NCBI GenBank assembly: GCA_045541035.1
Contig: JAZQII010000057.1
Span: 708-64,707, forward strand
DNA: 64,000 nucleotides
Reading direction: 5' to 3'
Source: Clostridia bacterium
GTDB lineage: Bacteria > Bacillota > Clostridia > Christensenellales > QALW01
Below, piece by piece: positions 448 to 27,682 of this stretch (positions are counted from its first letter, which is position 1; every line of letters begins with the position of its first letter). The notes below the pieces were generated by a model that saw only the letters and a list, made by a program, of their open reading frames with translations, had not been told where the DNA came from and ran no database searches. The position numbers and the translations under genes were made by a program.

Positions 448-479
448 CATGCAAATGTAATAAAAAGGAGGGTAAATAA

Positions 480-2231: not shown

Positions 2232-2240
2232 GCTACATAC

Positions 2241-2285
2241 ATAACAGGCACGAGAGGTTGACTCCCGTGCCTGTTATCATTTTGT
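2241..2285 (+). terminator. rho-independent terminator closing the three-gene operon
   Basis: 12-bp stem ATAACAGGCACG / CGTGCCTGTTAT (2241-2252 / 2266-2277) followed by a T-rich tail. Confidence 0.8.
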
Positions 2286-2378
2286 ATATTCGATTATAAG
2301 TTCATCGATGCTGTTTGTATACTTGCTTTGCTAATATATCATCATGATAATCTTTGATATTGTTTTCAGTCAAGTGCC

Positions 2379-3290
2379 TTAATATGTTTTCGTTATGAAA
2401 TAGTCTTCATCCAGTGCAGTTGCGCTTTCGAGTTGTTGAAACCCGTAAAACTTTTTACCGATTGCTGTTCTTGATATGTCACAGGTAATATCTACGTTCC
2501 ACCAAACACCGTCAAAATACACACGATTCCAAGTGTGGCGATCTGTGCTGTTTTTACGGGATATTCCGTCAACAGCGTAGCAAGAGATACCTTGACTACG
2601 GCAGAATACGGCGAACAGATGTGCAAAATCAAAGCAAAGTCCTTGCTTGGTTTGCAGTGTCTTGCGAACATCAAAGTATTGGAAGACTGGATAACAGTCG
2701 TAGTCATACTCGAAGTTGGCTATGATCCAATTATAAAAAGCCAGTACCTTTTCTTGATCGGTTTCACAATCGGCACAAATTTCGTCAGCAAGTTCTTCCG
2801 TTTGCGTGTCCCACAGGGTATCTCTACCGTTGGAAAGATAAGGGGCTTCCGGTTTGTAGACGAAATTATATGAGAAGAACAGAAGTACTGCAATAAATGC
2901 TGTTAGAACCAAGACACAAATTTTCGTCAGCAATTTATCCTTGCCGGAACTGTTATCGACTATACCAAAGTACATCATTTCGATAGCCGTTACCACAAAC
3001 GTCAGCATCGGCAGAAGCCTGCGGCAGGAAAAAGCGCTAACAATACTCATTATCATGACGAAAAATAGGACAATCAGCACGACCACCCGCATAGGTGTTG
3101 ACCGTATTTTCAGGACGAAAAATAAGGTCGGCAGTGCTGATAGCAAATACAATGTCACCAGCATCGGTGAAAGTACAAAAAAGTCTTTCAGATATATGCC
3201 CAACAGCAGATTGTATGCTGCCAGGATAAAAAAGAAAATAAAGCCGGATTTCGACTGCAATGTGATTGCAAATAATTTGGATATCTTCAC
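2379..3290 (-). CDS. polytopic membrane protein with C-terminal transglutaminase-like cysteine-protease domain
   Basis: The N-terminal half is hydrophobic and multi-TM. The C-terminal GLCFDFAHLF...DRHTWNRVYFDGVWWNVD has the Cys-His-Asp transglutaminase core pattern. Confidence 0.7.
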   Translation of the reverse strand: MKISKLFAITLQSKSGFIFFFILAAYNLLLGIYLKDFFVLSPMLVTLYLLSALPTLFFVLKIRSTPMRVVVLIVLFFVMIMSIVSAFSCRRLLPMLTFVVTAIEMMYFGIVDNSSGKDKLLTKICVLVLTAFIAVLLFFSYNFVYKPEAPYLSNGRDTLWDTQTEELADEICADCETDQEKVLAFYNWIIANFEYDYDCYPVFQYFDVRKTLQTKQGLCFDFAHLFAVFCRSQGISCYAVDGISRKNSTDRHTWNRVYFDGVWWNVDITCDISRTAIGKKFYGFQQLESATALDEDYFITKTY

Positions 3291-3714
3291 GATAAGTCCT
3301 CAATTCATTTGTAAATTCACATTGCAACAGTTCGTTTCCCAAATCTAAAACATAAGATTTTGATAATTTTTGCCCTTAATTTTGCCCTTATAATCTTTAG
3401 GGACAAGGGTAAAACGGTGTAACACCGTATAGTGGGATGAAATGAGTTGTTTGCGAAAACTCCTTTATTTTCAATGGTTTTAGAGCATTTTACTATGTGT
3501 TATGAACAGCCAATAACATCTCAAAAAATCTTGCTATTCAAATTCCAATTTATCAAATAGATGATATTTGTTTAGAAAAGAGTTTTAGGTTCTCCTAAAG
3601 ATTGGGAAATGTGCCGTACATTTTCCCTGCTTGCTACGGTATGAGACAAATATTAAACGGATGTGTAGAATTTCTGCGCATCCGTTTTACTATCTCAAGA
3701 GAAAATATTTTAAT

Positions 3715-3771
3715 AGTGATATTGTGAGACAGGTCTCATAGTGATATTTTGCCTAACGGCAAAGTGATATT
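3715..3771. repeat. three direct AGTGATATT repeats, the first two followed by a 5-6 bp hairpin
   Basis: AGTGATATT occurs at 3715, 3740 and 3763. The first two copies are followed by the palindromes TGAGAC-ag-GTCTCA and TTGCC-taac-GGCAA; after the third I find no convincing inverted repeat. Confidence 0.6.
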
Positions 3772-3798
3772 AAAACCTTGCGGTTTCAGCGGTTTTAT

Positions 3799-4869
3799 TT
3801 ATTTTATCCAACTTTCCCTATCCTGATAAAGTTCAATGTTTGTTTTTCCGTAAAAAGCCCATTGCATTTTCTGTGCAACAAGGGGATAATCGACTTTCCA
3901 ATACCATATGCCGTCAATGGTGGTACCCACCGCGCTTTCATCATCAGGGAAACTGTATTGCACCATATTATATTCAAGCCAGCCGTTTAAAAGCGCATCT
4001 GTTGCAAGGGACAGTAATTGTTCGGAAGTATATCCTGTGCGGATATATTTCGTTACTTCGCTAACAAGGGAAATAAGTTCGGTTTTACTTTGATTTTTTA
4101 TTTCGTTTAATATGGATTTTATTACTTGCTGCTGTCTGCCAACGCGGGCAGTATCACCGCCGGTCTGATGGCGAATGCGCATAAAGATAAGTGCCGTTGC
4201 GCCGTCAATTACGTTGGTTCCTGCCTTTACCTTCGTTCCCCAATAGGTGTTCATGTAATCGGCTTCGGTTTTAGTGATATTTACTTTTACTCCGCCCATT
4301 TTATCAATGATTTTAGGCAGCGAATAAAAGTTTACAAGAGCATAGTTATCAATTGATATTTTATAATACTTTTCAATAAGTTCTATCTGCATTTTAGGTC
4401 CGCCGTAGTTATTGGCATGGTGCAGTTTTTCAAAGGTCTTTTTGTTTCCGTGCTCCATATAGCAATACTGATCCCGCAGAACAGATGCAAGAGTAATGGT
4501 TTTTGTGTTATGATTTATGGAAACGATAACCATCGCATCTGCCCGCGAGTTTAAATTCATATCGGCTGAATCAACGTCAATCCCCAAAAGCAGAATATTA
4601 GTAACGTTTTCTTCGCTTGCAGGCTGACCGTTTTTCTGCCATGCAACTATTTTATCTTCCAAACTGCCCGTTTCATTTTCTCTTATCGTTCCTTCGTTTA
4701 TATTTACGCTCACGTTGGGATTATATACTTCTCCCGTCATTTCGCCTGTCAGATAAAGCCAGCCGCCGTAAAGAAGACCTATTAAAATTATCGCAACAGC
4801 CAGGGCGATTGCCACAGCCTTAAAAAATACCGTTACACCATCGTATTCTCTCAAAAAAGTCACCTGCAT
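3799..4869 (-). CDS. LCP (LytR-CpsA-Psr) family cell-envelope polymer ligase
   Basis: It has an N-terminal TM anchor. NILLLGIDVDS...SRADAMVIVSINHNTKTITLASVLRD is the typical LCP core. Confidence 0.8.
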   Translation of the reverse strand: MQVTFLREYDGVTVFFKAVAIALAVAIILIGLLYGGWLYLTGEMTGEVYNPNVSVNINEGTIRENETGSLEDKIVAWQKNGQPASEENVTNILLLGIDVDSADMNLNSRADAMVIVSINHNTKTITLASVLRDQYCYMEHGNKKTFEKLHHANNYGGPKMQIELIEKYYKISIDNYALVNFYSLPKIIDKMGGVKVNITKTEADYMNTYWGTKVKAGTNVIDGATALIFMRIRHQTGGDTARVGRQQQVIKSILNEIKNQSKTELISLVSEVTKYIRTGYTSEQLLSLATDALLNGWLEYNMVQYSFPDDESAVGTTIDGIWYWKVDYPLVAQKMQWAFYGKTNIELYQDRESWIK

Positions 4870-5007: not shown

Positions 5008-6108
5008 TTGAAAATACTTATACTTACTTGTAACACAGGACAAGGACACAACTCCACCGCAAATTCTATCAAGGAGAAGTTTCAGAAATACAATATACAA
5101 TGTGACAGCACCGACGCGCTTTCCTTTGTATCGAAAAATATGTCAGATTTTATCGGCAATATGCACACAAAATTATACCGTTATGCTCCCGTACTTTTTG
5201 ACCGCGGATATGAATTCGCAGAAAAATATCCGTCAGTTTTTGCCGATGATTCTGTTGCCTACAATTTTTTCTGTTTAGGTGTTGATAAATTAAAGTCTTT
5301 CGTTGAAGAAAATCAATACAGCGGTATTATCTGTGTGCACGTTTTTTCCGCGCTTATGGTAACGGAACTTATCAAAAAGCATTCGCTGAACTTAAAAACG
5401 GCATTTGTTGCAACGGACTATACCTGCTCTCCCGGCGTTGCCGAATCAAATATGGACGTCTATTTTATCCCCCACGAAAATCTTATAGGCGAATTTGTTG
5501 CCTGCGGAATAGCAGAAGAAAAACTGATTCCTTCAGGTATTCCGGTAAAAGATGCTTTTTATTATTCCGTTGATAAAAATCTTGCAAGGCGCGAACTTAA
5601 TATCCCCTATGATTCAAAACACATTCTTATGATGTGCGGAAGTATGGGTTGCGGTCCCATGGAAGATATTACCGAAAAACTTAAAGCCATAATGCCCGAT
5701 AACGTACATCTGACCGTTGTTTGCGGAACTAACGATAAACTTAAAAAGCGCATTGAAAAATTCCAATCAAAAAATATTGACGTTCTTGGCTTTGTTGACA
5801 GCGTTCCTCTGCTTATGGACAGCGCCGACCTTTACGTTACAAAAGCAGGCGGTTTAAGCGTAACGGAAGCCGCAACGAAGCGCCTTCCATTAGTGTTTAT
5901 TGATGCCGTTTCAGGTTGTGAAAGTTATAACAGATATTTCTTCCTTACTCACGGCATGGCTCTTGCTTCAAACGATCAGTCAAAACTGCCCCGCCTTATT
6001 TTAAAAAGGCTTCTTGATGAAAATGCATTAAAAAAACAGCAGGATATTATGCGCAAAGAATTTTACAAACACCCCGCCGAAATAATTTGTGATTTCTTTA
6101 TAAGATAA
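5008..6108 (+). CDS. MGDG-synthase / UgtP-like glycolipid glycosyltransferase (GT28 family)
   Basis: The N-terminal MKILILTCNTGQGHNSTA is typical of MGDG_synth-type diacylglycerol glycosyltransferases. The C-terminal half is GT-B-like (KAGGLSVTEA). Confidence 0.7.
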   Translation: MKILILTCNTGQGHNSTANSIKEKFQKYNIQCDSTDALSFVSKNMSDFIGNMHTKLYRYAPVLFDRGYEFAEKYPSVFADDSVAYNFFCLGVDKLKSFVEENQYSGIICVHVFSALMVTELIKKHSLNLKTAFVATDYTCSPGVAESNMDVYFIPHENLIGEFVACGIAEEKLIPSGIPVKDAFYYSVDKNLARRELNIPYDSKHILMMCGSMGCGPMEDITEKLKAIMPDNVHLTVVCGTNDKLKKRIEKFQSKNIDVLGFVDSVPLLMDSADLYVTKAGGLSVTEAATKRLPLVFIDAVSGCESYNRYFFLTHGMALASNDQSKLPRLILKRLLDENALKKQQDIMRKEFYKHPAEIICDFFIR

Positions 6109-6145: not shown

Positions 6146-6937
6146 TTCAAACATCGTCGTCTTTTCCGATGGTGTTATGCCAAACATCTTCTTATATTGT
6201 TTATAAAAACCTGAATAATCATTAAATCCGCATTGAAATGCCGCTTCCGTTGCCGATTCGCCGTGCTGAATTTTCTGTTGTGCAAGAATCAGTTTTTTCT
6301 TTAAAATGTACCGATAAACAGATATATTCATATCTTTTTTAAAAGTTTGTGTTAAAGTGGAAACAGATACGTTTAACTTTTTTGAAAGTTCGCAAACGGA
6401 GATTTTGCCGCAAAGTTCTTCGTTGATTAACTCAATGGTTTTTGAGGTTATTTCCGAAGGTTTCCCTCCCTCTTTCACCGCTTGGTTATCCTTAGATACT
6501 TCATTTAACACAAGAGCCAATAAAGCGTGCATAAGAACTTGTTTTTCGTTATCTCCGCTTTTTGAATCAACGATTTCATTCATTTTATAAAACAGTTTTT
6601 TCTGCTCGCTGTCTGCTTCAATTACACGGGTTTCGTGCATACATTTTTTAATAAGATCTTCAAATTCAGGAATATCATAAAAACCGAATACGCATCTGTG
6701 ATATTCTTCATCTTTTTCATTTTTGAATTGGTGATAAGTTTCTTTGGGAATTATTATAGTTTGATAAGGTGAAAGAGGTATATGCTTTTCTTCTGTAAGA
6801 AAAGTCGTCTGACCGCCGACAAATAATAATATCTCATGATAATTATGAAATTCCCTTTCAGGATACGCGCTTGTGCCTTTTGCGTGCTTATAAGTACATT
6901 TTTGCCCATAAATGTGTTTTGAAAACTTTTCTTCCAC
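6143..6937 (-). CDS. AraC family transcriptional regulator (cupin sensor + HTH)
   Basis: The C-terminal dual-HTH pattern (ELSKKLNVSVSTLTQTFKK...GFNDYSGFYKQYKKMFGITPSE) is typical of AraC/XylS. Confidence 0.8.
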   Translation of the reverse strand: MEEKFSKHIYGQKCTYKHAKGTSAYPEREFHNYHEILLFVGGQTTFLTEEKHIPLSPYQTIIIPKETYHQFKNEKDEEYHRCVFGFYDIPEFEDLIKKCMHETRVIEADSEQKKLFYKMNEIVDSKSGDNEKQVLMHALLALVLNEVSKDNQAVKEGGKPSEITSKTIELINEELCGKISVCELSKKLNVSVSTLTQTFKKDMNISVYRYILKKKLILAQQKIQHGESATEAAFQCGFNDYSGFYKQYKKMFGITPSEKTTMFE

Positions 6938-16675: not shown

Positions 16676-16705
16676 TTTACATTTACTGAAAACCTATGTT
16701 ATAAT
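16676..16705 (+). promoter_or_regulatory. extended -10 promoter of LRR locus 1
   Basis: TTTACA (16676-16681), 18-nt spacer, TGtTATAAT (16697-16705). The same ATGTTATA(A/C)T box sits at the same distance from the leader arm in locus 2. Confidence 0.6.
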
Positions 16706-16711
16706 ACTTAT

Positions 16712-16897
16712 GCTCAACAAATCAATAAAGTTAAAAGGTGTAGTTTATCAACTTACGCTTATTTTTCGTTGTCAATTCACGAATTTGTAAAAATGCAAAT
16801 TCCACAGAATTGGCAATAGTTTACTATACCTTTTTTGATTTGTTGAGCGACAATCGGAGTTTGCGTTTTATGCGCCAACCTCGGTTGGCGCTTTTTT
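16712..16897 (+). promoter_or_regulatory. structured 5' leader with orphan intrinsic terminator (copy 1)
   Basis: Arms GCTCAACAAATCAA (16712-16725) and TTGATTTGTTGAGC (16835-16848). There is a nested helix at 16769-78/16807-16 and a hairpin at 16781-16802. The terminator GCGCCAACC-tcg-GTTGGCGC plus T6 lies at 16872-16897. Confidence 0.6.
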
Positions 16898-17010: not shown

Positions 17011-20000
17011 ATGAAAAAAATCATTTCTTTAGCAATTTCCATATCAATTGCCATCGGTTTGTTTGCCGGATTGAACTTTAACGTTTCTATTCGGGCAGAA
17101 AGTGACGTTGCTGATCCATCAGTAACACCCATCGCAACATCTACTCCTACTCCTTCAGCTACAGCCATAGCAACTCCCACAGCTACACCTGCAACAAAGA
17201 AAGAAGTTGTAAACGGTAACGTTGAAAACGGCCTTGTAAACTGGGATAAGTTTGCAGCAGCAGGCGGTAAGGTTGAACTTACAACACCCGGTGCTGACGG
17301 CACAGGTCATGCAGCTAAGTTTACTGCTTCAGGTGTATATCATTCAATTGCATTTGACTTAGGTCCTGCAATCATTAACGCTCCTGAACACGGCTATAAC
17401 GGCGGCGGCGCAGGTTTGTACATGATCAGCTTCTGGGTAAAGGCTGATGCTAACGAAACAAACAACAAGTTTATATTCTTTCTTAACAGTCAGGCGCATC
17501 ATAGTCCCAATAATAAAGTGGGTGACTACACCGTTACAATGAACACCTACATCTCATCAGATTCTGTTACAATGACAACTGAGTGGCAGTATTTTGAGAC
17601 AACAATTGCTGTAACACAGGCATTCCTTGATAACCTTAAGGGTATCTATGATGCAGGCAAGCCTTCTGCATATCAGCTTATTCTCCGTCTTGACGGTTCA
17701 GGTTCTGCAAGTGCATTTGCAAACAGTGAGTTTTTCTCATATCATGTAGATGATGTTGCAATTTTAAAGACTTCAGATACAATTCCCACACCTACACCTA
17801 CACCTACACCTGTACCCACACCCACACCTACACCTCATCCGGTGTTACAGCATCTCACATATAGCACTTCCATCGGCAAAGTTACAATCACCGATTGCAA
17901 TACTTCAGTAAGCGGTGCATTGGAAATCCCCGCAACTATTGATGGTTATCCGGTAACAAGCATTGGCGATTCTGCATTCCGTAATTGCAGCAGTTTAACA
18001 AGCGTAACAATACCCGATAGTGTTACAAGTATTGGTGATTGGGCATTCGAAGGTTGCAGTAATTTAACAAGCGTAACAATACCCGACAGCGTAACAAGTA
18101 TTGGTTATGATGCATTCTATAATACTGCATATTATAATAACAGTAACAGATGGTCAAATAATGTTTTATACATAAACAATCATTTGGTTAAAGCAAAAAA
18201 CACAATTTCAGGTGAATATGCAATAAAAACAGGGACAAAAACTATTGCAACTTCTGCATTCGAAGGTTGCAGCGGTTTAACCAGCATAACAATACCCGAT
18301 AGTGTAACAAGTATTGATGGGCATGCATTTGGAGGTTGCAGCAGTTTAACCAGCATAACGATACCCGATAGTGTAACAAGCATTGGTAAATGGGCTTTCG
18401 AATATTGCAGCAGTTTAACAAGCGTAACAATAGGTAATAGCGTAACGAGTATTGGTGTGGCTGCATTCGAAGAATGCAAAAGTTTAACCAGCATAATAAT
18501 ACCCGATAGTGTAACAAGTATTGGTGGTCAGGCATTTGCTTGTTGCAATAGTTTGACAAGCGTAACAATAGGTAATAGCGTAACAAATATTGGTGAAAGG
18601 GCATTCTGCGGTTGTGATGGTTTAACCAGTATAACAATACCCGATAGCGTTATAAGTATTGGTGTTGATGCTTTCTCTGATTGCAGCAGTTTAAGCAGCA
18701 TAACAGTCGATGAAAATAATAAAAAGTATTATTCTGAAAATAATTGCCTTATTGAAAAAGACACAAACACGCTTATTTTAGGATGCAAAAATAGTGTTGT
18801 TCCCGATAGCGTGACAAGTATTGGTGATTCTGCATTCTATGGTTGCAGCAGTTTAACAAGCATAACAATACCCGATAGCGTAACAAGTATTGGTAGGTCT
18901 GCATTCTATGGTTGCAGCAGTTTAACAAGCATAATAATACCCGATAGCGTTACAAGTATTGGTACTTCTGCATTCCGTGATTGCAGCAGTTTAACAAGCG
19001 TAACGATACCCGATAGCGTTACAAGTATTGGTGATTCTGCATTCAATGGTTGCAGCAGTTTAACAAGCGTAACAATCCCCGATAGCGTTACAAGTATTGG
19101 CGCTATGGCATTCGAATATTGCAGCAATTTAACTAGCATAATAATACCCGATAGCGTTACAAGTATTGGTTATGAGGCATTCGCCGGTTGCAGCAGTTTA
19201 ACCAGCATAACAATACCCGATAGTGTAACAAGTATTGGTAGTTCTGCATTCGCCGGTTGCAGCAGTTTAACAAGCGTAACAATAGGTAATAGCGTAACGA
19301 GTATTGGTGTGGCTGCATTCGCCGGTTGCAGCAGTTTAACAAGCGTAACAATTCCCGATAGCGTTACAAGTATTGGTTATGAGGCATTCAATGGTTGCAG
19401 CAGTTTAACCAGCATAACAATCCCTGATAGCGTAACAAGTATTGGTGATGATGCATTCCATGATTGCAGCAGTTTAACCAGCATAACAATACCCGATAGT
19501 GTAACAAGTATTGACCATGGGGCATTCGCCAGTTGCAGCGGTTTAACAAGCATAACTGTTGATGAAAATAATGAAAAGTATTATTCTGAAAATAATTGCC
19601 TTATTGAAAAAGACACAAACACGCTTATTTTAGGATGCAAAAATAGTGTTATCCCAAATTGTATTACAAGTATTGGTGATCTTGCATTCTATAATTGCAG
19701 CAGTATAACAAGCATAACAATCCCCGATAGCGTTACAAGCATTGGCGATTCTGCATTCCGTAATTGCAGCAGTTTAACTAGCATAACAATACCTGATAGC
19801 GTAACAAGTATCGGTGATGATGCATTCAATGGTTGCAGCAGTTTAACAAGCGTAACGATACCCGATAGCGTAACAAGTATTGGTGGTTATGCATTCTCTG
19901 GTTGCAGCAGTTTAACAAGCATAACAATACCCGATAGCGTTACAAGTATTGGTTGGTATTCATTCTCTCGTTGCAGCGGTTTAACCAGCATAACAATACC

Positions 20001-21153
20001 CGATAGCGTAACAAGTATTGGCTATAATGCATTCCGTGATTGCAACAGTTTAAACACAGTATATTATATAGGCACAACAGAACAGTGGAATAATATTGTA
20101 ATTGATAATGGCAATGAGTATCTGACAACCGCAAATATTGTTTACAATTATGTTGTTGCTACACCTACACCTGTAGTTACTCCCACACCCACATCTACGC
20201 CTACACCCACACCTACACCCACACCTACATCTACACCTACACCTACACCAGCACCAATTTTTCAAGGCACAATCACCGGTGCGACCGTTGATATCGGATC
20301 AAGTCTTACCATCAACTATTTTGCTGAAGCACCTGAAGATGCTAAAATGAAATTTACTTCATCAAGCGGCAGAATTACAGAAGTTAATGGCGTTTATGAT
20401 GAAAAGACGGGCTATTATAAGTTTGCATACACGGGCATCAATCCTCAGTGTATGGGTGATACTATTAAGGCTGAACTTATGTGGGGGGATTATGTTCTTG
20501 ACACAAAGGAAAGCTACAGCGTAAAAGCATATTGTGAAAACCAGATATCAAAGTCCGCAAGTGATTTAGGCTTAACCGAAACTCAATATAACGCCCTTAA
20601 AACTCTTCTTGCCGATATGCTCGTTTACGGAAGCGAAGCACAGAAATATAAGGAGTATAATGTTTCCGAACTTCCTGATGTTGGCGAATGGGTAAGCACA
20701 AATAAAAGCACGTTTACTTCACCTACGGGCGTTAAAAAGGTAACGGGCAATGCTGATGCTGAAAACAAGGTAAAGTCCGTTGGCTTAAATATGGCAAACG
20801 TAAACAGAATCTACTTTAAATTGATTCTCAATGATGAAAACGTTGTTATTAAGTTGAATAATAAAGTAATTGACCGTTCAACCCTTATTACAAATGCTGA
20901 CGGAACGTTCTCACTTTATTCTTCCAATATTAAGGCAACGGGATTTGATAACGTTCACACCTTAACTCTCACACAAGGCGAAGAAGTTATTTCAACAGTT
21001 GAATATAACGTTAACGCATATATTCAATCAAAGAATGCTGATGCAACCGTAGGAGATATAGTAAAGGCATTATCTAACTACGGCACATCTGCAAAGCGTT
21101 ATCATAACTTTATTTCAGATGATGATTTTGATCTTGAAGGTGACGATCTTTAA
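17011..21153 (+). CDS. secreted giant BspA-type leucine-rich-repeat surface protein (CBM-like domain, PT linkers, LRR array, conserved C-terminal domain)
   Basis: Signal peptide MKKIISLAISISIAIGLFAG and TPTPTP linkers. There are dozens of 23-aa units of the form SLTS(I/V)[17 protein letters not shown]. The last ~295 aa are shared with 23378..26692. Confidence 0.85.
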   Translation: MKKIISLAISISIAIGLFAGLNFNVSIRAESDVADPSVTPIATSTPTPSATAIATPTATPATKKEVVNGNVENGLVNWDKFAAAGGKVELTTPGADGTGHAAKFTASGVYHSIAFDLGPAIINAPEHGYNGGGAGLYMISFWVKADANETNNKFIFFLNSQAHHSPNNKVGDYTVTMNTYISSDSVTMTTEWQYFETTIAVTQAFLDNLKGIYDAGKPSAYQLILRLDGSGSASAFANSEFFSYHVDDVAILKTSDTIPTPTPTPTPVPTPTPTPHPVLQHLTYSTSIGKVTITDCNTSVSGALEIPATIDGYPVTSIGDSAFRNCSSLTSVTIPDSVTSIGDWAFEGCSNLTSVTIPDSVTSIGYDAFYNTAYYNNSNRWSNNVLYINNHLVKAKNTISGEYAIKTGTKTIATSAFEGCSGLTSITIPDSVTSIDGHAFGGCSSLTSITIPDSVTSIGKWAFEYCSSLTSVTIGNSVTSIGVAAFEECKSLTSIIIPDSVTSIGGQAFACCNSLTSVTIGNSVTNIGERAFCGCDGLTSITIPDSVISIGVDAFSDCSSLSSITVDENNKKYYSENNCLIEKDTNTLILGCKNSVVPDSVTSIGDSAFYGCSSLTSITIPDSVTSIGRSAFYGCSSLTSIIIPDSVTSIGTSAFRDCSSLTSVTIPDSVTSIGDSAFNGCSSLTSVTIPDSVTSIGAMAFEYCSNLTSIIIPDSVTSIGYEAFAGCSSLTSITIPDSVTSIGSSAFAGCSSLTSVTIGNSVTSIGVAAFAGCSSLTSVTIPDSVTSIGYEAFNGCSSLTSITIPDSVTSIGDDAFHDCSSLTSITIPDSVTSIDHGAFASCSGLTSITVDENNEKYYSENNCLIEKDTNTLILGCKNSVIPNCITSIGDLAFYNCSSITSITIPDSVTSIGDSAFRNCSSLTSITIPDSVTSIGDDAFNGCSSLTSVTIPDSVTSIGGYAFSGCSSLTSITIPDSVTSIGWYSFSRCSGLTSITIPDSVTSIGYNAFRDCNSLNTVYYIGTTEQWNNIVIDNGNEYLTTANIVYNYVVATPTPVVTPTPTSTPTPTPTPTPTSTPTPTPAPIFQGTITGATVDIGSSLTINYFAEAPEDAKMKFTSSSGRITEVNGVYDEKTGYYKFAYTGINPQCMGDTIKAELMWGDYVLDTKESYSVKAYCENQISKSASDLGLTETQYNALKTLLADMLVYGSEAQKYKEYNVSELPDVGEWVSTNKSTFTSPTGVKKVTGNADAENKVKSVGLNMANVNRIYFKLILNDENVVIKLNNKVIDRSTLITNADGTFSLYSSNIKATGFDNVHTLTLTQGEEVISTVEYNVNAYIQSKNADATVGDIVKALSNYGTSAKRYHNFISDDDFDLEGDDL
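17850..20100 (+). repeat. in-frame 69-bp tandem coding repeats (LRR array) with an internal ~852-bp segmental duplication
   Basis: Near-identical units repeat throughout. The block GATGAAAATAAT(A/G)AAAAGTATTATTCTGAAAATAATTGCC... occurs at 18709 and again at 19561. Confidence 0.85.
20266..21153 (+). repeat. inner inverted repeat, arm 1 (codes the shared C-terminal domain)
   Basis: Reverse-complement match to 23378-24275. Most positions are identical by eye. Confidence 0.85.
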
Positions 21154-21276: not shown

Positions 21277-23337
21277 ATGGATAATTTTGTTTTTCCTTAT
21301 GATCTTGAAGGGTTAATTGACGTTACAAAACCGCCTTACAATGCCGATAACACGGGCAAGACCGATTGCACTAAGGCATTATGTCAGGCGATAGACGATA
21401 TTTTTCTTGAATATAAGCGTGCCTTTGACAAGACCGTTGAAAAGGTGAACAACACCGAGGGCGACGAAGTGTGGATCGGCTTTGAGATCCGCAGAGTTGA
21501 CGGCGTAAACTGCATTATTTGGCCTGAAAAGTTACCTCCCTCAAAGATAATCTATTTCCCCAACGGCACCTATCTTGTTTCTGACACAATCACTTATTCC
21601 TTAGAGCATTTCAGGAACATTTTCAACAACGTTCCCTATCTTGAAATGAACTGTCGCTTGCGCCTTATCGGGCAGAGTATGGAGGGCGTAACAATAAAAC
21701 TTCAGGATAACTGCAAGGGCTTTGAATATGGTACTGACCGCCCCGTTATCTCCTTTATGCGCGGTGAAGCATCAAACATTGCAATGACCAATATGCTCGA
21801 AAACTTCACCATTGATATCGGCAAGAATAACCCAGGTGCAACGGGTGTGGTTCATTTTGCCAATAATACGGGCGCGGCACGAAATCTTCGCATAATTTCA
21901 TCTGACGATAATTTCCGCGGAAGCGCAGGCTTTGCCATTATTCACGATAAGGCTTCTGCATGCATCGCAGATAATATTGAAGTTATCGGCTTTGATTATG
22001 GCTTCAAGGTAACGCCCCAAACGCACTTTGCATTCTTTGAGCATATTAAGGCAAAGAATCAGAAGCGCGCAGGCTTCTTTGTTGGCGATACCATCGTTTC
22101 CATTCACGATTACGAAAGCGAAAACGCTTGCCCTGCCTTACGTTGCACCGGCTTTGACGGACACACCGTTTGCATTGACGGTCGCTTTAAGGGCACAACG
22201 ATGAATGATTTTGCCGTGCGCCACGAGTTCGGCACACTTTATTTAAGGGATATTTTGGTGGAAAACTATTTCCACTCAATGTTCGGCTACTGTTCAGGCT
22301 ACGTTGACGGCGATTTAAAAGAATATTCATCCCACGGTCACGTTATGGGTCTTGATAAAGGCGAAGCCTTAACACTTAATCTGCCCATTGAAAGCACACC
22401 GAAAATTCCTTGGGAAGAACCTGAAAAGTGGGTTTCGGTAAATTCATTCGGTGCAGTTGGCGACGGCAAAACGCCTTGTTCTGATGCCATTCAAAAGGCT
22501 CTTGATTCAGGGGCATCAACGGTTTATTTTCAGCCGGGCAACTATTTAATTGATAAGCAGATAGTTATTCCCCCAACGGTAAACCGCATTAACTTTATGT
22601 ATTGCGACCTTTGTAACACTGATGAAATGAAAGAGCTTACCCACACGGGCGTATTTAAGGTTACGGGCGAAAGCGAAACTCCCCTTATTATTGAGGATCT
22701 TTTTGCCTTTGAGTATCTTTCGGGAATGAACACCTTAGTCGATCACGCTTCAACGCGAACACTTATTTTATCTGATCTTCACACTCAGGCACTTTCAATG
22801 TACTTTAACTCCGTTGAGGGCGGAAAAGTGTTTATGGAAAACGTAGGCTGTACTTTAGGCGGAATCCCCGGCACGGGCGGTCTTACCGATGAGGGCGAAA
22901 AGGAAAGAGAAAAACAGTTCCACTATTCACGTTCAACGCCCTGCTATCACTTTAAGGGACAAAAGGTTTGGGCTAGACAAATAAACCCCGAACGCAGTAA
23001 AACAGAGATCTTAAACGATCATTCCGACCTGTGGGTTTTGGGCTTTAAGGCTGAGGAAGAAGGCACCGCCTTTGAAACCATCAACGGCGGACGCACCGAG
23101 GTTTTCGGTGGAACACTTTGCATCTGCTACCGCGACCGTTTCCCTGCAATTATAAACCGTGATAGCGCAGTAAGCTTCATTTCCTCTTCCATCACCTATG
23201 CCAAGGACAAAATGTGGTCCCGCATCGTTGAGGAACATAAAGGCAACGAAACCCTCACCTTAACAAAAGACCAATTCCCCATCCGCTTTATGGACGTCAT
23301 CAGCGTTCCCCTTTATAAGGGTGATTTGAGGAAGTAA
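21277..23337 (+). CDS. two-lobed right-handed beta-helix protein (pectate-lyase superfamily / GH55-like)
   Basis: Two copies of the N-cap motif seen in Pectate_lyase_3/GH55 proteins (YNADNTGKTDCTKALCQAI; FGAVGDGKTPCSDAIQKALDSG). No signal peptide. Confidence 0.5.
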   Translation: MDNFVFPYDLEGLIDVTKPPYNADNTGKTDCTKALCQAIDDIFLEYKRAFDKTVEKVNNTEGDEVWIGFEIRRVDGVNCIIWPEKLPPSKIIYFPNGTYLVSDTITYSLEHFRNIFNNVPYLEMNCRLRLIGQSMEGVTIKLQDNCKGFEYGTDRPVISFMRGEASNIAMTNMLENFTIDIGKNNPGATGVVHFANNTGAARNLRIISSDDNFRGSAGFAIIHDKASACIADNIEVIGFDYGFKVTPQTHFAFFEHIKAKNQKRAGFFVGDTIVSIHDYESENACPALRCTGFDGHTVCIDGRFKGTTMNDFAVRHEFGTLYLRDILVENYFHSMFGYCSGYVDGDLKEYSSHGHVMGLDKGEALTLNLPIESTPKIPWEEPEKWVSVNSFGAVGDGKTPCSDAIQKALDSGASTVYFQPGNYLIDKQIVIPPTVNRINFMYCDLCNTDEMKELTHTGVFKVTGESETPLIIEDLFAFEYLSGMNTLVDHASTRTLILSDLHTQALSMYFNSVEGGKVFMENVGCTLGGIPGTGGLTDEGEKEREKQFHYSRSTPCYHFKGQKVWARQINPERSKTEILNDHSDLWVLGFKAEEEGTAFETINGGRTEVFGGTLCICYRDRFPAIINRDSAVSFISSSITYAKDKMWSRIVEEHKGNETLTLTKDQFPIRFMDVISVPLYKGDLRK

Positions 23338-23377: not shown

Positions 23378-24275
23378 TTAAAGGATATCATCCTCAAGCT
23401 CGAACTGATTATCGCCAATTGGTTTAAATGAATCTGCATAATCAGCTGCCGACTTACCGTAGTTCGATAATGCTTTTACTATATTGCCAACCTTGGCATC
23501 AGCGTTCTTTGACTGAATATATGCGTTTACGTTATATTCAACTGTTGAAATAACATCTTCGCCTTGTGTAAGAGTTAAGGTATAAACATCATCAAAGCCC
23601 GTTGCATAGATATCCGAGGAATACAACATATATGTTCCGTCAGTATTTTTTATTAACTCTGCGCGGTCAATTACTTTATTATTCAACTTAATAACGACGT
23701 TTTCATCATTGAGAATCATTTTAAAGTAGATTCTGTTTACGTTCGCCATATTAAGACCAACAGATTTTACCTTGTTTTCAGCATCGGCATTGCCCGTTAC
23801 CTTTTTAACACCATCAGGAGTTTTAAAGGTGCTCTTATATTCGCTTACCCATTCACTTGCATCAGGAAGCTCGGAAACATTATAATCTTTATATTTTTGC
23901 GCTTCGCTTCCGTAAACAAGCATATCGGCAAGAAGAGTTTTAAGGGCGTTATATTGAGTTTCGGTTAAGCCTAAATCACTTGCAGATTTTGAGATCTGAT
24001 TTTCGCAATATGATTTTATGCTGTAGCTTTCCTTGGTGTCAAGAACATAATCCCCCCACATAAGTTCAGCCTTAATAGTATCACCCATACACTGAGGATT
24101 GATGCCCGTATATGCAAACTTATAATAGCCCGTCTTTTCATCAAGAACGCCATTAACTTCTGTAATTCTGCCGCTTGATGAAGTGAACTTCATTTTAGCA
24201 TCTTCAGGTGCTTCAGCAAAATAGTTGATGGTAAGAGTTGAGCCTACGTCAACGGTCGCACCGGTGACTGTGCCT
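23378..24275 (-). repeat. inner inverted repeat, arm 2
   Basis: Reverse complement of 20266-21153. It codes [42 protein letters not shown]... Confidence 0.85.
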
Positions 24276-26692
24276 TGGGGCTCTAATGTTTTAACTATAA
24301 GTGAAGCACTTAATGAACTTGCATAATATTTATCAGATTCAGCCTTTCGCTGATAGAAGAGATAGTTTGTTTCAGGATCAAGGTCAGTAAACACATTGCT
24401 TTCCTGCCAAGATACAGTATCCATCGAATACTCATAGCCATCAAATTTATTAAGGGTTATAGTATTATGAGTTTTATTTAAAAGCGTTGGTGTGTTAGGT
24501 GCTGTTTGTGTCCCTTTATCGGTTTTAAGTGTTGCGCCTGAACTTGATTTGCCAGCGTAATGGGTTTCACTTTCAGCATAACGTTGATAAAAAGTATGTT
24601 CTGTTCCACAATCGAGACCGTTAAATACGTTGCTTGCTTGCCATGTTTTGCCGTCAAGCGAATATTCACAGCCGTTAACAATATTAAGTGTTATGCTGTT
24701 TGCGGTAAAACTTTTTGCAGTTGGTGCCTCGGGAACAAGCATTTGCTTTGCCTTTTCCGTCTTAAATGTAATGCTTGCGCTTACGTTGCTAGCCTCGTGA
24801 GTTTCGTTTTCCTTGTAACGCTGATAGAAGGTATATTCTGTTCCGCTTAACAGATTACTGAACACATTGCTATCCTGCCAAGTAATGCCATCAAGAGAAT
24901 ATTCGCCATCTGTAAGATTCATAAGTGTTACGGAAGTATCGGTGAAATTTAACACTACGGGTGCCGATGGAGTGTTTTGTGCTGATTTAAAGGTAACAGA
25001 TACGCTTTCACTTATTTCACTTACCAATGCAATGCTTGATGCCTTTACCCTTTGATAAAATGTATAAGTTGTATCAGGTGAAAGATTTGCAAAAATATTG
25101 CTATTCTGCCATGTTATACCATCCTTTGAATATTCAAAACCTTCAAGTTTTACCAAAGTAACACTACTGTTAGTTTTACTTTCAACAATAGGCTTTTCAG
25201 GTGCTTTGCTATATTTACAAATATCGCAGGTGTGATTATTATTAAGCGTATAATTATGGTCAGGCACTGTGCGAATATCTTTACAAATATTGCATTCTGT
25301 ATCGCAAGCGTTGTCATAAGTATGAGTAATTGTTCTTATAAACTTACAAATATTACATTCTGTGTCACAGGTATTATCGTAAGTATGAGTAATTGTTCTT
25401 ACAAATTGACAAACGTTACATTCTGTATCGCAAACGTTGTCGAATGTATGTTCTGCTCTTTGAATACAACTGTTATAATAACGTGTTGCGTTTATTAAAT
25501 AACTATTACTATCGCCTTCTATTGAAATACTATTCCATTGCGCCTGTGTGCCGGTGTAATATACTGTCTTTAATTTGCTGCAACCATAGAATGCATGACC
25601 ACCAATACTTGTTACACTATCAGGTATCGTTACGCTTGTTAAACTACTGCAACCTTCGAATGCCATAGCACTAATACTTGTTACGCTATCAGGTATCGTT
25701 ACGCTTGTTAAACTGCTGCAATCACGGAATGCAGAATAACCAATACTTGTTACGCTATCACCTATTGTTACGCTTGTTAAACCGCTGCAACCATAGAATG
25801 CAGAATCGCCAATACTTGTTACGCTGTCGGGGATCGTTATACTTGTTAAACCGCTGCAATTAGCGAATGCAAAATCGCCAATATTTGTAACGCCATCAGG
25901 TATTGTTACGCTTGTTAAACTGCTGCAACCATAGAATGCACCACTACCAATACTTGTTACGGGATAGCCTTCAATCGTTGCGGGAATTTCCAATGTGCCA
26001 ATTGTCGAAGTGTTACAATCTATAATTGAAACTTTGCTGTTGTTGGAAATGCTATAACTATATGTAAGATACTGTAATATTGCATTAACGTAACCACAAT
26101 TCCATGTAGTGAACATTGTACCAACCAAATCGCCTTCTTCTGCTTCAATAACGAATGCAGTGCCAGAAGGTGCCGCTATGCCATCAACAGTATTGATATT
26201 TATGCGCATAAATAACTTTGAAACATCAACATACTGAATACCATTTAAAATATTGTCATTAACAATAATTACCTTGCCTGTTTCTGAGTCAATGGGAACT
26301 TCAATTACAAATGTATGCTTTTCACCGGGATGAATTACAGCAGTCTGGTCATAACCATACCAGCCCATTCCTCCTTCAGCGTTAACTGCAACTGTAGACT
26401 GAACGCAGTAGGAAAGGCTAATAGCATAACTGTTAAGGTTATAGAATGTTTGTGTCGAAGTAATATAGCCATTCTTTACGTCATCAGCAGTAAATACGTT
26501 TGCGCTTGAGGTAACATAATAATTGCTTGTTGTTTTTTTAAAGAAATAACCTGCTACGGTTTCCGTCTCTTTTGTTGATATAGAGGATGTAAGAGGTGTA
26601 TTTTTTTCTTCAGCACTAACAGTAAACATTACCATACTTACACAAGAAATTGCAAGTGTAAGTATAAGGATAAAAGATAATAATTTTTTCAT
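23378..26692 (-). CDS. secreted BspA-type LRR / Cys-rich repeat / FN3-like repeat surface protein with the shared C-terminal domain
   Basis: Signal peptide [21 protein letters not shown]. It has ~6 LRR units, three 21-aa HT(F/Y)DNxCDTECN(V/I)C repeats and four ~95-aa FN3-like repeats (..Y(S/E).DG.TWQ.SN.F..L...T.Y.FYQR). The C-terminal domain is shared with 17011..21153. Confidence 0.85.
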
Positions 26693-26705: not shown

Positions 26706-27419
26706 TTATGCCTTGTTGCTAAAAATTTTAATTAAATCGTTTATAACCCAGCCACCCGGAATGGTTTTTTCAATTGCTTCCAAGCCAAGACTGATACCAG
26801 CCTTTTTTAACTTCGTTAAAAAAGATTTTTCAGTAAATTTCTCATTAAGCTCTGAATCTTTTTGCGAACGCTCATTAAGATTTTTTATAAAGTCTTTTTT
26901 GAGCGTTTTCATTTCTTTTTCGTTAAGTTTTTTCTCTAACTGATAGATATGAAGCAATAACTCAATAAAATATCCCGGTGGAATTTTTAATAGCTTTGAG
27001 TTAAGCTGAACCTCCACAAAGCCGCCAAGTGCTTCTATTGCCTGTTGCAATTCAAGGTAGACATTAGGATCGGGAATGCTTATAACAATCCTATCAGCGT
27101 TATCAAATACGGCGTTTTTGCTATATTCAATAAATGCATCATACCATTTATACTCACGCGGATAAATTAACTGTTTTTTTACTTTTAGTTGCCTTACCGT
27201 TGCTTGAGTGATCCCCAATTTTTTGCTCATTTCATAATCATCAAAGTTTTGTCCCGATTCTATCAGCTTGTCTAAATAAATCGAAAACATCAACAAGTCT
27301 ATTTGTGATTTATTAAAGCTGCCGAAATTTACGTTGTAGTAATTTTCTGCAATTTTGTCAAACAGCTTTGCCTTTTCTTGAGCTGATAATGACTTCATAA
27401 GCTCTATTCCCTTGCTCAT
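26706..27419 (-). CDS. hypothetical protein with a putative HTH segment, co-transcribed with the LRR gene
   Basis: SD GAAGGGAG. The stop lies 13 nt before the LRR gene start. MSKKLGITQATVRQLK looks HTH-like. I do not recognise a family. Confidence 0.5.
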   Translation of the reverse strand: MSKGIELMKSLSAQEKAKLFDKIAENYYNVNFGSFNKSQIDLLMFSIYLDKLIESGQNFDDYEMSKKLGITQATVRQLKVKKQLIYPREYKWYDAFIEYSKNAVFDNADRIVISIPDPNVYLELQQAIEALGGFVEVQLNSKLLKIPPGYFIELLLHIYQLEKKLNEKEMKTLKKDFIKNLNERSQKDSELNEKFTEKSFLTKLKKAGISLGLEAIEKTIPGGWVINDLIKIFSNKA

Positions 27420-27449: not shown

Positions 27450-27647
27450 AAAAAAGCGCCAACCGAGGCTGGCGCATAAAACGCAAACTCCGATTGTCGC
27501 GAAACAAAATTAAAAAACAGGTATATTAAATTACACACGCTTTCGTTGGAATTTGCATTTTTTCAAATTCGTTAAAAGCGTATGACAAAATAGAATATTA
27601 CCCAAAAATAGAAATATCCCTGTTTATCTTCTTTAATTTTGTTTCGC
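27450..27647 (-). promoter_or_regulatory. structured 5' leader with orphan intrinsic terminator (copy 2)
   Basis: Arms GCGAAACAAAATTAAA / TTTAATTTTGTTTCGC (27632-27647 / 27499-27514 on the minus strand). The helix ACGCTTT/AAAGCGT surrounds the same GAATTTG-N8-CAAATTC hairpin. The 3' 52 nt including the terminator differ from copy 1 at one position. Confidence 0.6.
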
Positions 27648-27653
27648 AAGGTT

Positions 27654-27682
27654 AGTATAACATAAAACAAAGGCTATCGCAA
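27654..27682 (-). promoter_or_regulatory. extended -10 promoter of LRR locus 2
   Basis: On the minus strand: TTGCGA (27677-27682), 17-nt spacer, TGtTATACT (27654-27662), then 6 nt to the leader arm. Confidence 0.55.

Follow-up and report, generated by a model that had tools for sequence, protein, structure and literature searches.

We report here a family of structured RNA leaders carried by at least 31 species of gut Clostridia, two copies of which lie in the window, i.e., the whole 64-kb stretch of DNA analysed: copy 1 on the plus strand (16712-16897) and copy 2 on the minus strand. The element is real: it is a structured, strand-specific RNA of about 200 nt, preceded by a strong promoter and followed by a terminator. 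The family is absent from Rfam 15 and was not found in the searchable literature. We consider that it probably serves as a 5' mRNA leader acting in cis as a transcription attenuator. The main clue to the mechanism is a pair of alternative pairings of the 3' linker, which an initial annotation of this DNA had missed.

Briefly, in the model that we prefer, a strong promoter of the sigma-70 type, with its -10 box extended, would drive transcription from the very first base of helix P1, which together with its inner extensions forms a long rod. The rod carries an optional side hairpin, P2, and a long helix, P3, capped by hairpin P4; past the rod come a conserved single-stranded linker and then an intrinsic terminator. 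The linker would have two mutually exclusive partners, the 3' half of P4 or the terminator. If the 3' half of P4 captures the linker (14 bp, P4 open), the terminator would form, transcription would stop and an RNA of about 200 nt would be released; if P4 is closed, the linker would be free for an 11-bp pairing that covers the terminator loop and the beginning of the 3' arm, the terminator hairpin would be prevented and RNA polymerase would read into the downstream gene. The outcome would be set by whatever stabilises or opens P4, possibly a protein, another RNA or folding kinetics.

Two copies of the leader in the window

The initial annotation had described copy 2 as the second copy of a leader with compensatory changes in both helices, and the covariance-model alignment of the two copies supports this: nine still-paired base pairs are altered on both sides, four in the outer helix and five in the inner one. 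The other details of that description hold as well. On the minus strand the copy 2 promoter is followed after 6 nt by perfectly complementary 16-nt arms around a 117-nt core (Table 1); the GAATTTG-N8-CAAATTC hairpin is conserved between both copies, and the helix around it is ACGCTTTT/GAAAGCGT in copy 2 vs TTGTCAATTC/GAATTGGCAA in copy 1; linker and terminator show a single A/G difference between the copies, located in the 5' arm of the terminator; and the ATG of the 237-aa ORF, at 27419, lies 30 nt beyond the copy 2 T-run. Judging from the sequence, transcription of copy 2 is predicted to start about 6 nt past the -10 box, at the first base of helix P1. The MFE z-scores of the two copies are -6.4 and -7.6, with none of 200 shuffles folding as well, and exactly two occurrences of the 28-nt tail were counted in the window vs zero expected.

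Table 1. Coordinates of the two leader copies and the genes that follow them in the window
Feature	Position	Strand	Remarks
Copy 1 promoter	16676..16705	+	TTTACA, 18 nt, TGtTATAAT
Copy 1 sensor	16712..16848	+	fold, covariance-model alignment
Copy 1 helix P1	16712-16725 with 16835-16848	+	GCTCAACAAATCAA with TTGATTTGTTGAGC
Copy 1 helix P3	16769-16778 with 16807-16816	+	TTGTCAATTC with GAATTGGCAA
Copy 1 hairpin P4	16781-16802	+	P4 3' segment 16790-16803
Copy 1 linker	16849-16871	+	
Copy 1 terminator	16872-16891; T6 16892-16897	+	predicted; GCGCCAAC-CTCG-GTTGGCGC
Gene after copy 1	17011..21153	+	1380-aa BspA-type LRR_5 protein, signal peptide; start 113 nt past T-run
Copy 2 promoter	27654..27682	-	-35 TTGCGA 27682-27677, 17-nt spacer, extended -10 TGtTATACT 27662-27654; layout recurs in family
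Copy 2 helix P1, 5' strand	27632..27647	-	GCGAAACAAAATTAAA; fold, covariation
Copy 2 helix P1, 3' strand	27499..27514	-	TTTAATTTTGTTTCGC; fold, covariation
Copy 2 sensor core, 117 nt	27515..27631	-	rod inner extensions AAACAGGGATA / TATACCTGTTT, P2, P3, P4
Copy 2 hairpin P2	about 27620-27592	-	U-rich loop, U·G pairs
Copy 2 helix P3	27581-27574 with 27544-27537	-	ACGCTTTT with GAAAGCGT; fold, covariation
Copy 2 hairpin P4	27549..27570	-	GAATTTG-AAAAAATG-CAAATTC; most sequence-conserved part of the sensor
Copy 2 P4 3' segment	27548..27561	-	AAAATGCAAATTCC; 3' half of P4 loop, P4 3' strand and one C; 14-nt complement of linker
Copy 2 linker	27476..27498	-	GACAATCGGAGTTTGCGTTTTAT; alternative partners P4 3' half and terminator
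Copy 2 linker part	27491-27478	-	GGAGTTTGCGTTTT; can pair with P4 3' half
Copy 2 linker part	27496-27486	-	CAATCGGAGTT; can pair with terminator loop and 3' arm
Copy 2 intrinsic terminator	27450..27475	-	predicted; GCGCCAGC-CTCG-GTTGGCGC and T6
Copy 2 terminator part	27470-27460	-	AGCCTCGGTTG; linker's partner in the alternative antiterminator pairing
First gene after copy 2	26706..27419	-	237-aa protein, no Pfam family; start 30 nt past T-run
Second gene of copy 2 operon	23378..26692	-	1104-aa BspA-type LRR_5 surface protein

A strand-specific structured RNA family

The family set comprises 38 distinct members drawn from the window, about 31 species-level MAGs of Acutalibacteraceae and unclassified Clostridia, and metagenomes. 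Please note that the genome scan needed an exact 22-nt match to the linker, so that linker invariance in 32 of the 38 members is by construction. With these further homologues and a covariance model, both of which the initial annotation had proposed as a check, its observation that structure is kept as sequence changes extends to 38 aligned sequences: 95.9% of the pair cells are paired vs 33-49% when the partners are slid, 39 of 52 pairs are altered on both sides, and the covariation score is 0.46 vs 0.06-0.08 in the slid controls, with none of 500 shuffles reaching the observed values. The internal hairpins covary as well. The 6-nt distance from the -10 box to the first paired base, seen before in the two window copies, is kept in nearly all members.

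G·U and U·G combinations outnumber A·C and C·A by 177 to 21 in the family alignment, i.e., an excess of about eightfold, and the covariance model scores 50-202 bits on the sense strand and at most 32 bits on the antisense strand. Because of this excess and these scores, we take the element to be a strand-specific RNA and not a DNA inverted repeat. A functional RNA or functional inverted repeats had both been offered in the initial annotation; the data favour the former over the latter, given also the covarying internal hairpins and the fact that no inverted core was seen among 41 members, all having the same orientation relative to promoter and terminator. A DNA-level element, either an invertible segment of the cwpV type (phase variation) or a miniature transposon, would indeed present perfect 14-16-bp inverted repeats around a core of about 120 bp upstream of surface-protein genes, and in other species a resolvase gene and inverted repeats lie upstream of homologues of the 237-aa gene. 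Those resolvase-linked loci, however, lack the leader, and neither window copy adjoins a recombinase gene. Moreover, conservation would be expected of a recombinase site or transposon end, whereas the repeats differ between copies and species; one core orientation is shared by 41/41 members; the G·U excess is sensible only for an RNA of this strand; and covariation extends to the internal hairpins. We regard a DNA-level element as already largely refuted and extremely unlikely. A MITE was rejected on similar grounds, as the arms differ between copies, the element has one orientation and always lies between promoter and terminator, and there are two copies in 64 kb.

The closing helix measures 12-19 bp and extends further, the sensor rod is about 165 nt long and the linker 23 nt, and every member has a terminator, i.e., a G+C-rich hairpin followed by a T-run. 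Invariant positions in the family alignment occur only in the base of P1, P4, the linker and the terminator; apart from P4, junctions and loops show no sequence conservation, and the P3 sequence varies freely. In one divergent subfamily, L060, both P2 and the inner junction are missing and the sensor is reduced to a plain rod.

The linker and its two alternative partners

The linker and the 3' half of P4 can form 14 contiguous pairs, with 529 of 532 cells paired (99.4% vs 22-57% when slid), and every P4 variant is a transition that keeps the linker pairing, even at loop positions without a partner inside P4. Alternatively, the linker can pair over 11 bp with the loop and 3' arm of the terminator in every member (96.2% of cells paired vs 10-62% slid), and this comes out as the consensus fold predicted for the majority class. 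In the main family neither alternative pairing has double-sided changes, the support coming from one-sided changes and from three subfamilies. The divergent subfamilies L004 and L060 keep both alternatives with different sequences: their P4 segments are ..AAAAAUGUAGGCUUA and ..GGCUC, their linkers UAAGCCUCGUUUUU and GAGCCGUGCAUUUUU, respectively, and their terminator loops still hold CUUC..UUGUU. The corresponding duplex energies are -17.7 and -20.4 kcal/mol with the sensor, and -17.3 and -13.9 kcal/mol with the terminator.

Antiterminator and terminator are close in energy in all members, typically -18.2 vs -16.0 kcal/mol; in the window copies the values are -11.2 vs -16.4 kcal/mol. The terminator tetraloop is variable at its second base (UUCG, UACG, UGCG, CUCG) and the linker does not compensate, which breaks one antiterminator pair in 10 of the 38 members, both window copies included. 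Selection for a stable UNCG-type loop would account for this pattern no less well than selection on the antiterminator. The pairing of the linker with P4 would need the P3/P4 arm to be folded back along the rod, which seems plausible.

Other readings of this region were rejected or set aside. Two further contacts, one between linker and junction GGCUUGGAUUG and the other a kissing of the P2 and P4 loops, are class-specific or geometrically unlikely. The linker of the main family can be read as a ribosome-binding site with a leader peptide (GGAG-N10-AUG/GUG), but a 2-nt indel between the classes shifts the frame, so that the peptides are unrelated, and L004 and L060 do not share the spacing. 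A small ORF inside the sensor is ruled out by indels between close relatives that are not multiples of three.

The rod might instead be a 5'-terminal stabiliser against 5'-end-dependent decay, or an RNase III processing site, with no sensing involved. It is known that 5' stem-loops stabilise Firmicute mRNAs, and this rod is long and very stable, has a sequence free to vary as long as pairing holds, begins with P1 at the predicted +1 in nearly all members, and makes up the whole sensor of L060 in plain form. The strong terminator inside the leader, the conserved P4 sequence and the two conserved alternative pairings of the linker would, however, all be left unexplained, and we consider a stabiliser or processing site improbable.

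Downstream genes and action in cis

The next gene, equipped with a ribosome-binding site, starts at most 35 nt past the terminator T-run in 17 of the 38 loci, copy 2 among them (30 nt). Such a gap leaves no room for a separate promoter, so the gene must be transcribed by the predicted read-through; the 237-aa gene, with its start 30 nt past the copy 2 T-run, is transcribable in this way only. In majority-class loci, a second conserved helix is located between the terminator and the start codon, indicating that transcripts continue beyond the terminator. At some loci the next ORF is 200-340 nt away.

These arrangements bear on whether the leader is a free-standing, trans-acting small RNA, whose linker would be the seed for target mRNAs and whose downstream genes would be mere neighbours. 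Such an RNA would be expected to look much like this one in several respects, i.e., its own strong promoter and strong terminator, one or two copies in most genomes, a highly conserved linker and P4 in a remainder that drifts, the 200-340 nt before some of the next ORFs, and a locus often adjoining tRNA genes. We nevertheless find it unlikely, since the ribosome-binding site of the next gene, within 35 nt of the T-run in the 17 loci, depends on read-through, the second helix of the majority class implies continuing transcripts, the downstream gene class is coherent, and the linker finds complementary stretches at two places in its own transcript. In the cis-acting attenuator that we prefer, the terminated product could also act in trans, i.e., the leader could have a dual function.

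The initial annotation had placed the leader upstream of LRR operons and proposed to examine the downstream gene classes for LRR or surface proteins. In the window the first statement is right; a general tie to LRR operons falls, as the downstream exported proteins are heterogeneous, and the class that does appear is that of exported and surface proteins: the first downstream ORF has a signal peptide, lipobox or membrane segment in 29 of 38 loci. The products are varied and include lipoproteins, secreted proteins, membrane proteins and a cohesin/dockerin protein. In three further loci the first ORF is the 237-aa gene and an LRR surface protein is encoded behind it, and orthologous loci in related species have unrelated secreted proteins in place of the LRR genes. 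The leader is thus not specific to LRR genes.

The 237-aa protein was considered as the leader's dedicated partner and rejected, because most leaders lack the gene and many homologues of the gene lack the leader; being so often separate, the two are not obligately linked. Structurally, the protein resembles only the Legionella effector SidN/Lpg1083, a likeness that does not suggest a regulatory role.

Possible role at genes for exported proteins

The Acutalibacteraceae, a GTDB family that includes relatives of Ruminococcus bromii, are abundant and mostly uncultured gut and rumen bacteria, and very little is known about how their surface is controlled; the leader is a candidate regulator. In at least 31 species it is found in front of genes for LRR proteins resembling adhesins, for a cohesin/dockerin protein and for many lipoproteins. 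It would be a compact and testable switch, made of promoter, sensor of about 165 nt, 23-nt linker and terminator, and its design is unusual in that the terminator decision appears to depend on capture of the linker by the rod tip, not by the closing helix, with no evident ligand pocket. Finding the leader's input could therefore reveal a new way of sensing, and the covariance model could mark leaders, and thus the exported-protein regulon, in metagenome-assembled genomes.

More tentatively, the family might be an RNA sensor of a new class, acting in gut Clostridia as the gate of "expression sites" from which variable surface and exported proteins are made. Under this possible but speculative reading, the leader would be bistable, P4 would read a cellular signal (e.g., an envelope or secretion-status protein or RNA, or a second messenger), the linker would invade P4 in a toehold-like manner via the A-rich loop, and the cargo gene would be exchanged between species.

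Comparison with known RNA families

The initial annotation recognised no Rfam family, and searches of Rfam 15 agree: the whole window gave no match at gathering thresholds, and at permissive thresholds the two copies reached at best 27-29 bits vs thresholds of 60-141, mostly via the terminator. A majority-class member likewise gave no match. In related loci the same tool found tRNAs, T-box, FMN riboswitch and Gut-1, which served as the positive control. Nothing relevant was found in full-text literature on riboswitches of the taxon, small RNAs of R. bromii or the linker sequence.

Firmicutes leaders that work by terminator and antiterminator include riboswitch expression platforms, T-box leaders and the protein-controlled trp and pyr attenuators. 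The family resembles them in its order of parts (promoter, structured sensor, linker with putative exclusive pairings, intrinsic terminator, gene) and in its predicted competing folds, which are near-isoenergetic. It has two features of an attenuator, a covarying structured domain at the transcript 5' end (95.9% of cells, 39/52 pairs) and an intrinsic terminator before an ORF without its own promoter (terminators in all members, 17/38 loci with a gap of at most 35 nt). It differs in its proposed anti-antiterminator partner, a hairpin at the tip of the long rod and not the closing helix. The closing helix is far longer than the P1 of a typical riboswitch, and there is no conserved junction pocket: among the 38 members the junctions vary, and conserved junction or loop nucleotides of a metabolite-riboswitch pocket were not found. 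The absence of any conserved junction or loop apart from P4, together with an L060 that has no P2, argues against a pocket for a small molecule. The T-box model did not match the leader, and a true T-box was detected in L021.

Surface proteins of Clostridioides difficile are controlled by c-di-GMP riboswitches before adhesin and pilus genes and by the invertible cwpV leader. Like these, the family would offer 5' leader control through a terminator at cell-surface genes in a member of the Clostridia. However, the Rfam models of the c-di-GMP-I and -II riboswitches do not match it, and unlike cwpV it shows no inversion and its pairing is RNA-specific. Processive antitermination leaders, i.e., LoaP-dependent leaders, the EAR RNA and the phage put RNA, are also structured promoter-proximal RNAs, with terminators in the leader and long surface or exopolymer operons behind it. 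Here, in contrast, no NusG-family gene is associated among the neighbours, the EAR model of Rfam has no match, and the RNA has a local alternative pairing with its own terminator.

The size and the rod-like fold, with the 5' end paired to a 3'-proximal segment, recall 6S RNA, and a divergent 6S-like RNA would bind RNA polymerase through a central bubble in the rod. The rod, of about 165 nt, has an asymmetric internal region between its closing helices and a terminal helix, which, like the one or two copies in most genomes, would be in keeping with this. Yet no 6S model was hit even at E<=10 with either copy or a majority-class member, L060 has no bubble, and the conserved 3' linker and terminator with tight cis coupling to the downstream ORF are foreign to 6S, making such an RNA very improbable. 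A retron msr-msd was rejected as well, for inverted repeats are present but a reverse transcriptase is absent among the neighbours. The same applies to integron attC-like sites: the GCCAAAC / GTTTGGC arms resemble integron core sites, but neither cassette arrays nor an integrase are present, and the pairing is specific to RNA.

Distribution of the leader

A metagenome scan with the P4 hairpin returned 10 loci, of which seven were chance matches and only L014, L016 and L017 were members. Viral contigs and PLSDB plasmids gave no match, and an origin from a phage or plasmid was rejected. Most genomes have one or two copies, and the leader locus often adjoins tRNA genes.

Conservation of the leader RNA

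On the minus strand (27682-27400), the leader before the 237-aa ORF (copy 2) has the promoter, arms, core, linker, terminator and start-codon spacing that the initial annotation gave it. Its last 52 nt differ from those of the plus-strand sister leader (copy 1) at a single base and the remainder has diverged, again as described, with identical stems of the GAATTTG-N8-CAAATTC hairpin. The proposed compensatory changes are borne out: in the covariance-model alignment, nine base pairs are changed on both sides between the copies and still paired, four in the outer helix and five in the helix beneath the conserved hairpin. Both copies fold far better than their shuffles (z-scores -6.4 and -7.6), and the covariance model detects no third copy in the window.

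Coordinates of the leader copies, nearby genes and related loci
Feature	Position	Strand	Remark
Copy 1	16712-16897	+	
LRR_5 protein	17011-21153	+	
Pectate-lyase-like gene	21277-23337		
LRR_5 protein	23378-26692	-	
237-aa ORF	26706-27419	-	ATG 30 nt past copy 2 terminator
Copy 2 promoter	27682-27654	-	TTGCGA-N17-TGtTATACT
Copy 2 5' arm	27647-27632	-	16 nt, 6 nt past promoter
Copy 2 3' arm	27514-27499	-	after 117-nt core; perfect complement of 5' arm
Copy 2 linker		-	23 nt, between 3' arm and terminator
Copy 2 terminator	27475-27450	-	GCGCCAGC-CTCG-GTTGGCGC + T6
L033, copy 1-orthologous	2383-4470		unrelated 623+-aa secreted protein
L037, copy 1-orthologous	2026-4553		cohesin/dockerin protein
L035, copy 2-orthologous	1-691		secreted protein directly after leader
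L029, partial element	5070-5185		
Second UTR helix, L045	~6850-6935		
Second UTR helix, L018	~330-420		
Second UTR helix, L021	~2769-2860		
Resolvase gene, L002	1241-2035		
Resolvase gene, L003	657-1451		
Resolvase gene, L052	3291-4001		

Briefly, one genome per species was scanned with 22 nt of the linker, yielding 33 loci in 31 assemblies, all of them MAGs from the guts of ruminants and other animals, labelled Acutalibacteraceae, Clostridia, Ruminococcus sp. or Candidatus Fimenecus. Scanning metagenomes with the hairpin brought in three more members besides seven chance matches, and one close relative was reached through homologues of the 237-aa protein. The resulting alignment holds 38 distinct sequences; linker invariance in 32 of them is by construction, as they were found by exact linker match. 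The common layout is a near-consensus extended -10 promoter, 6 nt to the first paired base, rod, conserved hairpin, linker, terminator and T-run. L029, one of the members, retains only the 3' two-thirds of the element, with unrelated sequence in place of the 5' part; possible causes are rearrangement, insertion and a join made in assembly.

A covariance model built from nine sequences of the majority class (the commonest group) recovers all 38 members at 50-202 bits. Its consensus comprises a closing helix P1 of 12 bp continued inward by two rod extensions of 9 and 7 bp, a side hairpin P2 whose loop is U-rich and whose U·G pairs are conserved, a helix P3 of at least 10 bp whose sequence is almost free, and the conserved hairpin P4. 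Structure is kept while sequence changes: standard pairs fill 95.9% of pair cells (33-49% with the 3' partners slid 1-3 columns), both-sided changes occur in 39 of 52 pairs, and the covariation score is 0.46 against 0.06-0.08 in slid controls, with no shuffle matching the observed values, all figures being somewhat inflated because the model alignment was fitted to the structure. An independent MAFFT alignment already displays covariation in P1 and the terminator.

The initial annotation had allowed either a functional RNA or functional inverted repeats. G·U/U·G pairs number 177 against 21 A·C/C·A pairs, an asymmetry that a DNA inverted repeat would not give, and the antisense strand reaches 32 bits at most; what has been selected is therefore pairing in the RNA transcribed from the promoter toward the downstream gene. 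No family member carries an inverted core, and no recombinase or reverse transcriptase adjoins copy 1 or copy 2. The data thus favor the RNA alternative over the DNA one; the structured leader is real and well supported, with a conserved fold and a terminator on this strand. As a T-box, 6S RNA, retron RNA, inverton or MITE it was considered and rejected. In agreement with the initial annotation, no part of the window matches an Rfam 15 family, and sub-threshold matches on the two copies are not meaningful either. Literature searches found no paper describing the leader, which may figure in motif lists outside Rfam or the searchable literature.

Two mutually exclusive partners of the linker

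In majority-class single-sequence and consensus folds the terminator is not predicted; the linker (CAAUCGGAGUU) is instead paired with GGCUUCGGUUG, i.e., the end of the terminator 5' arm, the loop and the start of the 3' arm. Forced folds place this antiterminator close in energy to the terminator in every member, typically -18.2 vs -16.0 kcal/mol. The window copies, at -11.2 vs -16.4 kcal/mol, have a weaker antiterminator because their loop CCUCGG gives an A·C mismatch, and they should lean to termination. In the unfitted alignment the linker:terminator helix is paired in 96.2% of cells (10-62% when slid) and has no both-sided changes. The second base of the terminator tetraloop varies uncompensated, a pattern that selection for a stable UNCG-type loop would explain equally well.

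The linker has a second partner. Its segment GGAGUUUGCGUUUU can form 14 uninterrupted pairs with AAAAUGCAAAUUCC, a stretch made up of the P4 loop's 3' half, the P4 3' strand and the C that follows, and 529 of 532 linker:P4 cells (99.4%) are paired against 22-57% when slid. All variants in the P4 segment are transitions that keep the linker pairing, even at loop positions without a partner inside P4, where U/C faces G and A/G faces U. Duplex energies range from -12 to -18 kcal/mol. The P4 5' strand (GAAUUUG, or GAGUUUG in some members) resembles the linker (GGAGUUUG), as expected of two strands competing for one partner. Both conserved linker pairings overlap at GGAGUU and are thus mutually exclusive.

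Two divergent subfamilies, L004 (with matching contigs L005 and L006) and L060, have the same architecture in different sequence upstream of 237-aa-gene homologues. L004 scores only 19 bits with the covariance model, and L060 is a plain rod without P2. Their linkers are complementary to the 3' half of the tip hairpin (UAAGCCUCGUUUUU with AAAAAUGUAGGCUUA, -17.7 kcal/mol, in L004; GAGCC-G-UGCAUUUUU with AAAAAUGUAGGCUC, -20.4 kcal/mol, in L060) and likewise to the terminator loop, CUUC..UUGUU being kept despite unrelated stems (-17.3 in L004 and -13.9 in L060 vs terminators of -20.4 and -15.1). Both alternative pairings covary at the subfamily level, which is the strongest argument for a function of both.

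A probable cis-acting attenuator

In 17 of the 38 loci, copy 2 among them, a good ribosome-binding site and start codon lie within 35 nt of the T-run, so transcription of these genes has to start at the leader promoter and pass the terminator. Where the spacer is longer, majority-class loci have a second conserved helix between terminator and start codon (UUUUGCGGA...UCCGCAAAA, covarying with UUUUGUGGG...CCACAAAA), which implies transcripts continuing past the terminator. Many downstream genes thus depend on read-through, and a cis-acting attenuator is favored; the terminated ~200-nt product might have its own role.

We consider the leader a new family of transcription attenuators on an unusual platform; in its working it resembles the terminator/antiterminator leaders of Firmicutes, and it belongs to no Rfam family. 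With P4 closed, the linker would be free to pair with the emerging terminator loop and 3' arm, and polymerase would read through; capture of the P4 3' half by the linker, probably beginning at the A-rich loop, would instead let the terminator form. The long rod may set geometry and timing, with the input acting on P4. A small-molecule pocket is unlikely, given that junctions are not conserved and that L060 does without P2; a protein, an RNA or folding kinetics is the more likely input.

The second helix, absent from both window copies, starts in the terminator U-tract (AUUUUGCGGAG ... UCCGCAAAAU, covarying with AUUUUGUGGGA ... CCACAAAAU in other species; e.g., L045, L018 and L021), and a GGUGUUCAUAA box is conserved in the first group. 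L018, L020, L024, L025, L026, L031, L043, L046 and L050 have a further conserved hairpin with a U-tract (CCCACTATGACAC...TGTCAAGTGGGATTTTTT), located between a tRNA gene and the leader at some 40-110 nt before the leader promoter. A terminator-like hairpin, GAGTATTCA...TGAATACTC, precedes this one, which might represent a small RNA or else a tandem terminator. A tRNA gene often lies 150-600 nt from the leader (L018, L019, L020, L021, L024, L027, L031, L032, L038, L039, L043, L047), usually on the same strand and of varying identity (Pro-CGG, Leu-TAA, Leu-CAG, Val-GAC, Met, Thr-CGT). Partial tRNA-like 3' ends occur in L023, L036 and L041; in L036 only a tRNA-Pro-like 3' fragment lies just upstream, as left by mobile-element integration.

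Downstream genes

In the window, copy 2 precedes the 237-aa ORF, to which neither Pfam nor NCBIfam assigns a family, and a 1104-aa BspA-type LRR_5 protein, copy 1 lies 113 nt upstream of a 1380-aa LRR_5 protein, and the neighbors are ordinary metabolic genes (MFS transporter, glycyl-radical enzyme, oxidoreductases). The initial annotation tied the leader to LRR operons, which proved too narrow, as the downstream link is with exported proteins in general. Judged by simple sequence criteria, the first ORF encodes a lipobox, a signal peptide or membrane segments in 29 of 38 loci. Another three loci have the 237-aa gene with an LRR protein behind it, and among the rest at least one ORF was mis-called upstream of a lipoprotein. 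Most downstream proteins have no Pfam family; one is a cohesin/dockerin protein. Cargo differs even at loci orthologous to copy 1, with the same upstream oxidoreductase gene and a near-identical leader (L033, L037), and L035 is a copy 2 counterpart. Each species has a different, unrelated secreted protein there, so that the leader resembles a fixed expression site in which one cargo is swapped for another. The otherwise unrelated downstream proteins of L021, L030, L031 and L036 end in the same short motif, …ELKKYKELLDMGAITQEEFDEKKKQLL, which by eye resembles a SHOCT-type C-terminal domain.

The two LRR_5 proteins of the window are paralogues (C-terminal ~300 residues 86% identical, LRR blocks 56-77%), convergently transcribed with the pectate-lyase-like gene between them. 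The 237-aa family (window, L002-L007, L051-L061) has no obligate tie to the leader RNA and always comes first, ahead of genes for large surface proteins (LRR_5, cohesin/dockerin, Big_2/SLH). Among relatives of the 237-aa protein only the Legionella effector SidN/Lpg1083 has a solved structure (7yji; sequence E = 7e-14, Foldseek E = 1e-5), and the 237-aa protein contains an HTH-like stretch, LGITQATVRQL. In other species (L002, L003, L052) a small serine recombinase (Resolvase) gene precedes the homologue; L002 also has inverted repeats GTACACCTTTT / AAAAGGTGTAC ~120 bp apart, and this arrangement may be an invertible promoter serving surface-protein operons of the same kind.
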